This document shows, in pieces, positions 3,998 to 6,624 of a stretch of 64,000 nt of DNA (position 1 is its first letter; every line of letters starts with the position of its first letter). The position numbers and the translations under genes are program-made. Under the pieces are notes generated by a model that was not told where the DNA came from, made no database searches, and worked only from the letters and a program-made list of their open reading frames with translations. The DNA lies in NCBI RefSeq assembly GCF_050920415.1, contig NZ_CP169309.1. One strand, 5' to 3'. The DNA is from Escherichia coli. GTDB taxonomy: Bacteria > Pseudomonadota > Gammaproteobacteria > Enterobacterales > Enterobacteriaceae.

Positions 3998-5131
3998 TTA
4001 AACCGTCAACACCACACAGCTGTCCACTTCCCAGCACAAACGCACTTCGTCGCCCCAGGTCGGTAACCCTTTGCGATAACGATGGGCGTTTTGTAGCTGG
4101 GCGCTAATCATCTGCCCGCTTTTTAGACGAACGTGATACACCGAAAGATCGCCGAGATAGGCAATGTGCATCACCTCCCCTACCGCGAAGTTACAACCAT
4201 TGGCGGGCGGCTCCTCGCAGAGCATGATTTTTTCCGGACGCAGCGCCACATGCACCGGCACGTTATCGACCACCGAAGCATCTACATCAACTTTCAGTGG
4301 ATGCACCAGCCCCGGCGAATAAAGCACCAGACCATCTTCCTGACGCTCTTTGAGTACACCTTCAAAGACGTTTACCGAACCGATAAATTCAGCGCTATAG
4401 CGGGTGGTCGGATGCTCGTAGATCTCTTCCGGCTCGCCAATCTGGACAAATTTCCCACGATTCATAATGGCGATACGCCCCGCCATGGTCATCGCCTCTT
4501 CCTGATCGTGGGTGACCATCACACAAGTCACACCAACGCGCTCCAGAATATCCACCACTTCAAGCTGCATCCGGTCACGCAATTTTTTATCCAGCGCGCC
4601 CATCGGCTCGTCGAGCAGTAATAGTTTTGGGCGCTTGGCAAGGCTTCGGGCCAGTGCCACACGCTGTCGCTGACCGCCGGAAAGCTGATGCGGTTTGCGT
4701 TTGGCGAACTCCTGCATATGCACCAGCCCAAGCATCTCATTGACCCGGCTGGCAATTTCTGCTTTCGGCAGCTTGTCCTGTTTCAGGCCAAAGGCGATGT
4801 TCTGCTCCACGGTCATATGCGGAAACAGCGCGTAAGACTGAAACATCATATTGATAGGGCGCAGGTAAGGCGGCACCTGTGATAAATCGACGCCATCGAG
4901 CATAATCTGCCCGGCAGAAGGTTGTTCGAAACCTGCCAGCATACGCAGCAGCGTGGACTTGCCACAGCCGGATGCGCCCAGCAGCGCGAAGATTTCGCCT
5001 TTATAGATGGTCAGGCTGACATCATCGACCGCATGCTGACCATCGTAAGATTTAGTCAGATTACGGATTTCTAATAGCGGCGTCAGCGCCTTACGGGTTT
5101 TCGCCTGGGGGCGAGGGATAGCGTCATTCAC
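3998..5131 (-). CDS. potG: Putrescine ABC transporter ATP-binding protein PotG (GTG start)
   Basis: Walker A GASGCGKST, LSGGQRQR signature; recalled 377-aa PotG begins at VNDAIPRPQ, which is GTG at 5129-5131; the 404-aa track ORF is an upstream extension. Confidence 0.92.
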   Translation of the reverse strand: MNDAIPRPQAKTRKALTPLLEIRNLTKSYDGQHAVDDVSLTIYKGEIFALLGASGCGKSTLLRMLAGFEQPSAGQIMLDGVDLSQVPPYLRPINMMFQSYALFPHMTVEQNIAFGLKQDKLPKAEIASRVNEMLGLVHMQEFAKRKPHQLSGGQRQRVALARSLAKRPKLLLLDEPMGALDKKLRDRMQLEVVDILERVGVTCVMVTHDQEEAMTMAGRIAIMNRGKFVQIGEPEEIYEHPTTRYSAEFIGSVNVFEGVLKERQEDGLVLYSPGLVHPLKVDVDASVVDNVPVHVALRPEKIMLCEEPPANGCNFAVGEVMHIAYLGDLSVYHVRLKSGQMISAQLQNAHRYRKGLPTWGDEVRLCWEVDSCVVLTV

Positions 5132-5225
5132 GGCTGCTCTCCGGCATTGAATGTGTGCAAGCGCACCCTGATGGTGCGAATTGCCGGCGGGTGTGGTGCG
5201 CCCGTCCGGCATCTACGGCTGCGGA

Positions 5226-6338
5226 TTATTTTCCGCTCTTCACTTTGGTCCACGCGCGGGTGCGCACACGGTCGATTTTCGGATCCTGCACTTTCAGAGT
5301 GAACAGCTTCGCACGGACATCCGCAGGCGGGTAAATACCGGGGTTATCACGCACTTCCGCGCTTACCAGCGGCGTAGCTTCTTTGTTCGCGTTGGCATAG
5401 AACACATGGTCAGAGATATGCGCTACGACATCCGGACGCAGCAGGTAATTCAGGAACTGATAAGCTTCGTCTTTATTTTTGGCATCCGCAGGCATGGCAA
5501 ATACATCAAAGAATGCCATCGCCCCTTCTTTCGGAATCGAGAACGAGACATTAACGCCATTCTTCGCTTCCTTCGCGCGGTTTGACGCCTGCCAGACATC
5601 GCCCGCCCAGCCAATAGCGACGCAGATATCGCCGTTTGCCAGGTCGTTAATGTATTGAGATGAATGGAAATAACGAATGTTCGGGCGCAGCTTTAACAGC
5701 AGATCGGTTGCCGGTCCGGTGTAATCATCTGCTTTAGTGCTGTTGGGATCTTTACCGAGATAATTCAGCACGGTAGCAAACACTTCTTCCGGTGCATCAA
5801 GGAAAGAGACGCCGCAGCTTTTCAGTTTTTCCAGATTTTCAGGTTTGAGGATCAAGTCCCAGCTATCGACGGGCGCGTTTTCGCCCAGCACCGCTTTAAC
5901 TTTATCGACGTTATAACCAATCCCGGTCGTCGCCCACATATAGGGCATAGCAAATTTATTGTCGGGATCGTGTTTGGCGACCAACTTCAGCAGTTCCGGG
6001 TCGAGATTCTTCCACTCCGGCAATTTGCTTTTATCCAGCGGCTGGAAAACTCCCGCAGTCAACTGGCGCTCCAGAAAGCTGGCAGATGGAACCACCAGGT
6101 CAAAGCCGGTGCTCCCTGCCATTAATTTGCCTTCCAGTACTTCGTTAGAGTCGAAAACATCGTAGACGACTTTAATACCGGTTTCTTTTTCAAAATTGGC
6201 CACCGTGTCCGGGGCGATATAATCAGACCAGTTATAAATGTGGAGTGTTTTTTGTTCAGCCGCGAGCGTGCCGACAGAGACGGCCATCAGAGCACCCGCA
6301 ACCAGACCCGATAGCCATTTTTTATTTAAGGCGGTCAT
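5226..6338 (-). CDS. potF: Putrescine-binding periplasmic protein PotF
   Basis: Internal start MTALNKKWLSG with signal peptide gives 370 aa; the track ORF has a 50-aa N-terminal extension. Confidence 0.94.
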   Translation of the reverse strand: MTALNKKWLSGLVAGALMAVSVGTLAAEQKTLHIYNWSDYIAPDTVANFEKETGIKVVYDVFDSNEVLEGKLMAGSTGFDLVVPSASFLERQLTAGVFQPLDKSKLPEWKNLDPELLKLVAKHDPDNKFAMPYMWATTGIGYNVDKVKAVLGENAPVDSWDLILKPENLEKLKSCGVSFLDAPEEVFATVLNYLGKDPNSTKADDYTGPATDLLLKLRPNIRYFHSSQYINDLANGDICVAIGWAGDVWQASNRAKEAKNGVNVSFSIPKEGAMAFFDVFAMPADAKNKDEAYQFLNYLLRPDVVAHISDHVFYANANKEATPLVSAEVRDNPGIYPPADVRAKLFTLKVQDPKIDRVRTRAWTKVKSGK

Positions 6339-6624
6339 ATCTCTTTCCTTCTGAAAGTTCGTTAACAAACGAACAAAAGTTGTCACACTGAAAGATATGC
6401 AATATTCGTGCATATTTTTTATCGGCTCGGTGTAAGAAAAGAGAACTCTCTCCCGGCCAGCACTGCTCGCTATATAAAAGCATCGCAAGAATAACTTTAG
6501 CCAGGGTTTGAGACTATAGCTCGGATTAAAAAACGGTATTTAACAAATTTTTATGCGTATTTGCTCTATGTGATAAAGCCAAATCGGCACAAGAGAAGTG
6601 AAATAATCTTTAAGAAAAGGTTAA

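Follow-up and report, generated by a model that had tools for sequence, protein, structure and literature searches.

Evidence for a GTG start of potG in Escherichia coli downstream of a 27-codon non-coding stretch

Introduction

Both the RefSeq coding sequence and the NCBIfam equivalog NF008621 identify PotG, which is the ATP-binding subunit of the putrescine ABC importer PotFGHI. The closest described counterpart of the locus analysed here is potG of K-12 (b0855, NP_415376.4), and the two are alike in their GTG start, GGAGAG Shine-Dalgarno (SD) sequence, product of 377 amino acids, upstream potF, and potH located 9 nt downstream. The two PotG proteins differ at 4 of 377 amino acids (D/Y, A/V, I/M, H/Y). 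The potF-potG spacers are likewise nearly identical; the few substitutions in K-12 would alter residues (D/E, Q/Y) of a hypothetical N-terminal extension of PotG.

That hypothetical extension belongs to a second gene model of 404 amino acids, which is found in some older or automatic annotations. The original 1993 potFGHI paper and the early K-12 annotation are said to have carried the longer form, with a correction made later. Examples of the 404-residue model (EFJ65982.1, EFK16914.1) start at the same ATG as the open reading frame (ORF) that a program draws at our locus. The model disagrees with RefSeq and with the NCBIfam equivalog, and its 27 additional residues are translated from what is, in all likelihood, non-coding spacer.

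A more distant relative is PotA, the homologous ABC ATPase with a C-terminal regulatory domain from the PotABCD spermidine/putrescine importer (PDB 8zx1 and 8y5f). PotA is a paralogue, and the protein encoded at our locus falls below the PotA equivalog cutoff (376 versus 482 bits). There is no deposited structure of PotG itself.

Here, we examine the translation start of potG in a 64-kb window of E. coli DNA, by which we mean the whole stretch that was analysed. The GTG start is the existing reference annotation and is already known; RefSeq, the NCBIfam PotG model and the K-12 reference all have it, and our analysis brings nothing new on potG biology. Its relevance is one of annotation hygiene only, in that the longest-ORF track overcalls potG by 27 codons. 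Cloning, modelling or peptide counting from the 404-residue form would include residues from non-coding spacer.

The potG reading frame and its candidate starts

Within the 404-codon ORF on the minus strand, only three codons are candidate starts: an ATG (codon -27), the GTG (codon 0) and a second ATG (codon +63). The GTG occupies positions 5131-5129 and the upstream in-frame ATG positions 5212-5210, a separation of (5212-5131)/3 = 27 codons, and an in-frame TAG (5215-5213) stands immediately 5' of that ATG. The window's ORF listing gives a mechanical ORF of 404 amino acids (3998..5212, minus strand) with the ATG as its start. Because the listing extends each ORF to the first ATG, GTG or TTG after a stop, the 404-residue form is a product of the longest-ORF convention. 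The features of the locus are collected in Table 1.

Table 1. Features of the potF-potG region, in window coordinates.
Feature	Coordinates	Strand	Basis
potF CDS, periplasmic putrescine-binding protein; stop TAA 5228-5226	5226..6338	-	RefSeq CDS of identical strain; sequence
Stem-loop (U)GCCGGaCGGG-loop-CCCGcCGGC(A), directly 3' of potF	5182..5211	-	Predicted in MFE and centroid folds
Upstream in-frame ATG of the 404-codon ORF, judged a non-start	5210..5212	-	Without SD; hairpin-paired; AAG in E. albertii
Remaining 26 "extension" codons, very probably non-coding potF-potG spacer	5132..5209	-	Polymorphism pattern; indels between genera
NtrC-type dyad CGCACC-N5-GGTGCG	5162..5178	-	Consensus match; conserved in spacer; gSELEX on K-12 spacer
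Shine-Dalgarno GGAGAG	5137..5142	-	GGAG core ends 7 nt 5' of GTG; conserved in 24/24
GTG initiation codon of potG	5129..5131	-	Sequence; conserved GTG/TTG; annotated start in 13 E. coli records
potG CDS, 377 codons plus stop	3998..5131	-	RefSeq CDS of 100%-identical EC42405, same coordinates; NF008621 match

Translation from the GTG reads VNDAIPRPQAKTRKA..., and the GTG-initiated protein has, by direct translation of the minus strand, the N-terminus VNDAIPRPQAKTRKALTPLLEIRNL.... This is the N-terminus, VNDAIPRPQ, that an earlier sequence-only reading of this DNA had assigned to PotG. The same reading had set the start of potG at this GTG, in agreement with RefSeq, NF008621 and the 23 other species described below, and it was right both in its coordinates and in its count of 27 residues added by the ATG at 5212. 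It went astray on one point: the ATG-initiated form was said to overlap potF, and the ATG in fact comes 13 nt after the potF stop codon, where it overlaps only the stem-loop 3' of potF and not the potF coding sequence.

The two forms of the protein would differ in their N-terminal peptides, which are (f)MNDAIPRPQAK for the 377-residue form and MPDGR / TTPAGNSHHQGALAHIQCR for the 404-residue form, beginning MPDGRTTPAG.... Taken together, the evidence set out below makes it nearly certain that potG begins at the GTG, that its product has 377 amino acids and that the 27 upstream codons are non-coding spacer.

Annotation and protein family

Over the 601 bases that surround the site, the window is 100% identical to E. 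coli EC42405, and 5417 of 5426 complete E. coli genomes contain a match. RefSeq annotates potG as a gene of 1134 nt (377 aa) from this GTG in EC42405, K-12 MG1655 (NP_415376.4) and O157:H7 Sakai, and the same start is annotated in 10 further E. coli strains that were chosen across the identity range, making 13 records altogether. For the 100%-identical strain, RefSeq places potF 94 nt before potG and potH 9 nt after it, an operon context with which the ORFs of the window agree.

The protein scores 849.2 bits against the NCBIfam equivalog NF008621 (PRK11607; 377 positions), for which the cutoff is 613, and is a PotG by that measure. Residues 28-404 of the long ORF are covered by profile positions 1-377, and the model therefore begins at the GTG codon; the 27 extra residues are unmatched. 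The translation also contains the motifs of an ABC ATPase, namely Walker A (GASGCGKST), the signature (LSGGQRQR) and Walker B (LLLLDEP), and it is strongly homologous to the solved PotA and MalK ATPases. Its alignment with PotA begins at residue 39 in the numbering of the 404-residue form and residue 12 in that of the 377-residue form.

These features bear directly on the third candidate, a translation start further downstream at the in-frame ATG of codon +63 (4942-4940). The existence of the codon is all that speaks for it. A start at this position would delete the Walker A motif together with the conserved N-terminal strand of the ABC domain, and it is refuted because this domain architecture would be lost. 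Homology to the PotA structure is, moreover, already under way at residue 12, and the NDAIPRPQ segment is conserved at the protein level over 24 species with mostly third-position changes. We assign this alternative no probability.

Public protein records are divided unequally between the two longer forms. In the protein collection, the 377-residue K-12 sequence was present on at least 1000 contigs and the 404-residue K-12 form on 49. Because it recurs on those 49 contigs, the over-extension is a recurrent minority gene-call.

Initiation signals

The best duplex of the GTG's upstream region with the anti-SD sequence has an energy of -6.6 kcal/mol at a spacing of 6-7 nt, and the best available to the upstream ATG is -3.5 kcal/mol at an unusable spacing of 16 nt. 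The predicted fold has the U and G of this ATG paired at the base of the GC-rich stem 3' of potF. The wider comparison also fits SD-led initiation at a non-ATG codon: all 24 sequences have a GTG or TTG as start codon and a GGAG at 7-11 nt.

On this basis, we propose that the 30S subunit would be positioned at the GTG by the GGAG(AG) sequence 7 nt upstream, and that the product would be the 377-residue PotG ATPase, fMet-NDAIPRPQ.... The ATG and the 26 codons that follow it would then be non-coding and free of stops by chance in this and many other E. coli strains. Ribosomes presumably use this GTG alone in vivo.

A further feature was observed around the start codon. Between positions 5123 and 5151 (minus strand), a CAUUCA located 14 nt 5' of the GTG has its complement in a UGAAUG made up of the final two bases of the potG start codon and the next four. 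Judging from this complementarity, the two segments could form a weak hairpin that holds the SD in its loop. The C>U change of O157, which is also the change that creates a TAA, keeps the pairing as G.U, and a change in E. albertii breaks a pair.

Comparison across Enterobacterales

One genome per species was scanned, which yielded 23 Enterobacterales loci with a PotG that aligns from residue 1. The sequence-only reading had named an alignment of orthologues as one way to check its start, and the 23 species do place the start at this codon: it is GTG in 20 of the 23 and TTG in the other 3. In 10 of the 23, a TGA or TAA occupies codon -1, and therefore no N-terminal extension is possible in those species. 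The E. coli ATG is shared by none of the 23: E. albertii lacks it, and so do all 22 other genera. Where an upstream in-frame start exists at all, it varies between species. In E. albertii, the ATG is replaced by AAG, and there is no upstream in-frame start.

The sequence on the two sides of the start codon evolves differently. Upstream, a GGAG is present in 24 of 24 sequences at a spacing of 7, 8, 9, 10 or 11 nt, and because the indels between SD and start that separate genera are not multiples of three, the stretch before the start is non-coding. Downstream, base changes fall mainly at third positions, and NDAIPRPQ is conserved across the 24 species. The potF-potG spacer itself ranges from 94 to 267 nt in length across species.

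Variation within Escherichia coli

Polymorphism within the species was assessed in 13 E. coli strains by comparing the 81-nt extension with the first 50 codons of potG and the last 49 codons of potF. The ATG is present in all 13 strains, and the 27-codon frame is open in 11. In the two exceptions, O157:H7 Sakai and O145:H28, the frame is interrupted by a TAA at codon -6 relative to the GTG. An exact 61-nt haplotype with this TAA was found in 351 complete E. coli records of the O157:H7 and O145:H28 types, or approximately 6% of genomes. In both of the TAA-carrying records that were examined (Sakai and O145:H28 RM12761), RefSeq annotates potG as intact from the GTG.

The extension contains 13 polymorphic sites, distributed 6/2/5 over the three codon positions; 9 of its 11 variable codons are non-synonymous, one of them becoming TAA. 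In the first 50 codons of potG, by comparison, the distribution is 1/0/15 (15 of 16 at third positions) and none of 15 variable codons is non-synonymous. In the last 49 codons of potF it is 1/1/19, with 3 of 19 variable codons changing a residue. The excess of residue-changing codons in the extension is significant against potG (Fisher p = 2e-5) and against potF and potG combined (1e-5). The extension polymorphism looks non-coding, and selection clearly does not preserve the extension as protein.

These results allow the ATG to be weighed as the true and only start, in which case PotG would have 404 residues with a 27-residue N-terminal extension. Several observations lend themselves to this reading: start codons are most often ATG, no stop interrupts the frame in the window, in K-12 or in most of the strains sampled (11/13), and the longer form appears in some public annotations (the 49 contigs above). 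Against them, the ATG is without an SD and is placed in a hairpin stem; the TAA interrupts the extension in the 351 records, with potG annotated intact in the two examined; the codon is missing from E. albertii and the other genera, where ten species have a stop at -1; and the polymorphism pattern is non-coding, with both the curated model and RefSeq beginning at the GTG. Because of the in-frame stops in O157/O145 and the stops at -1 in relatives, the reading is effectively refuted, and we regard it as having next to no chance of being correct.

A milder version would keep the GTG as the main start and add a second one. In lineages with an open 27-codon frame (among them the window and K-12, with O157:H7 and O145:H28 excluded), ribosomes that terminate at the potF stop would occasionally re-initiate at the ATG and produce a minor, lineage-specific proteoform of 404 amino acids. 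Bacterial ribosomes are known to re-initiate over short distances without an SD. The position of the ATG fits such a scheme, as it follows the potF stop by 13 nt and the in-frame TAG directly, and potF is assumed to be well translated; the frame is, again, open in 11 of the 13 strains sampled. However, part of the ATG is taken up in a stable hairpin, the extension is without protein-level constraint and is broken in approximately 6% of genomes, and no longer PotG product was found in the published data searched. Dual initiation is thus very improbable, and we retain the GTG as the start of potG.

The region is also of note for its diversity. Positions 4900-5500 of the window have an identity of only 93-95% to most E. 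coli genomes, and just 16 records reach 99% or more; the 100% identical match is the bovine strain EC42405. At the 3' end of potF and the 5' end of potG, approximately 10-14% of sites are polymorphic among the 13 strains, nearly all of them synonymous. For an E. coli core locus, such allelic diversity is unusually high, and it may derive from recombination.

Experimental evidence on the start site

Published initiation data for K-12 were also consulted. INRI-seq reports an in vitro initiation peak at 894991, which is the GTG, in 2 of 5 replicates and flagged TRUE (PMC9825163, Table S2). The potG construct used there begins 30 nt 5' of the GTG and thus lacks the ATG, which it cannot test. With 2 of 5 replicates, the in vitro peak at the GTG is weak. 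The Ribo-RET column of the same Table S2 (PMC9825163) lists no in vivo peak for potG, and the gene is unmentioned in the supplements of TRAINSPOTTER N-terminomics, TetRP and riboproteogenomics (mBio 2024). In the literature searched, neither an N-terminal peptide nor an initiation-site profile of potG from in vivo work was found.

The potF-potG spacer

The 81 nt of the supposed extension account for most of the 94 nt between potF and potG, a spacer with two elements: a stem-loop adjoining potF and a DNA dyad of the NtrC type. We infer the roles of both from their sequence, conservation and setting.

Paired changes in O157 Sakai and E. albertii (C.A to A-U) preserve or extend the pairing of the stem-loop, and strong hairpins occur 3' of potF in most of the 23 other species. 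A terminator scan returned no intrinsic terminator on the minus strand after potF, and the hairpin is without a U-run. The fold of the whole spacer is not significantly more stable than those of shuffled sequences (z = -1.6; z = -0.85), and the RNA-structure reading therefore rests on the conserved local stem rather than on global energy. An Rfam scan of the potF-potG spacer gave no family at E <= 1. By analogy with other ABC operons in which the binding-protein gene comes first, the stem-loop may stabilise the potF message or attenuate read-through.

The second element is an inverted repeat that was read at first as another RNA hairpin and is now regarded, from the literature and the comparison across genera, as a probable NtrC dyad at the DNA level. 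Its sequence, at 5178-5162 on the minus strand, is CGCACCATCAGGGTGCG, and it sits inside the supposed 27-codon extension. The consensus of NtrC sites is TGCACC-N5-GGTGCA, which we take the CGCACC-N5-GGTGCG of this locus to match. It is the sole exact GCACC-N5-GGTGC in the 64-kb window. The potF-potG spacer has an exact copy in every Escherichia record compared except one, in E. albertii and at four loci of other genera, and exact or near-exact dyads in that spacer extend over Citrobacter, Leclercia, Enterobacter, Kluyvera, Mangrovibacter and a soil MAG.

Binding data are available for the K-12 spacer, where gSELEX peaks were reported for NtrC (95%) and for the RpoN holoenzyme (PMC8743547). The same study presents gel shifts on this spacer and a 6-fold increase in potG mRNA under nitrogen limitation (PMC8743547). 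In our window, no match to the sigma-54 consensus TGGCAC-N5-TTGCA was found in the potF-potG spacer with up to two mismatches, and hits across the window were no more numerous than expected by chance.

potF and its upstream region

The over-extension seen for potG has a parallel in potF. The mechanical potF ORF (5226-6488, minus strand) runs for 420 amino acids from a TTG at 6488 and is over-extended by 50 codons; RefSeq potF has 370 amino acids and starts at the ATG at 6338, with AGGAAAGAG in front of it.

Approximately 60 nt 5' of the potF start lies the sequence ATGCAC-N5-TTGCA (6398-6413, minus strand), which is conserved in K-12 and Sakai apart from differences in the N5. The sequence is similar to a sigma-54 promoter except for a TG where the GG would be, and the window-wide count of the pattern is at chance level. 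The ybjN/potF spacer is the reported site of a 100% RpoN gSELEX peak (PMC8743547).
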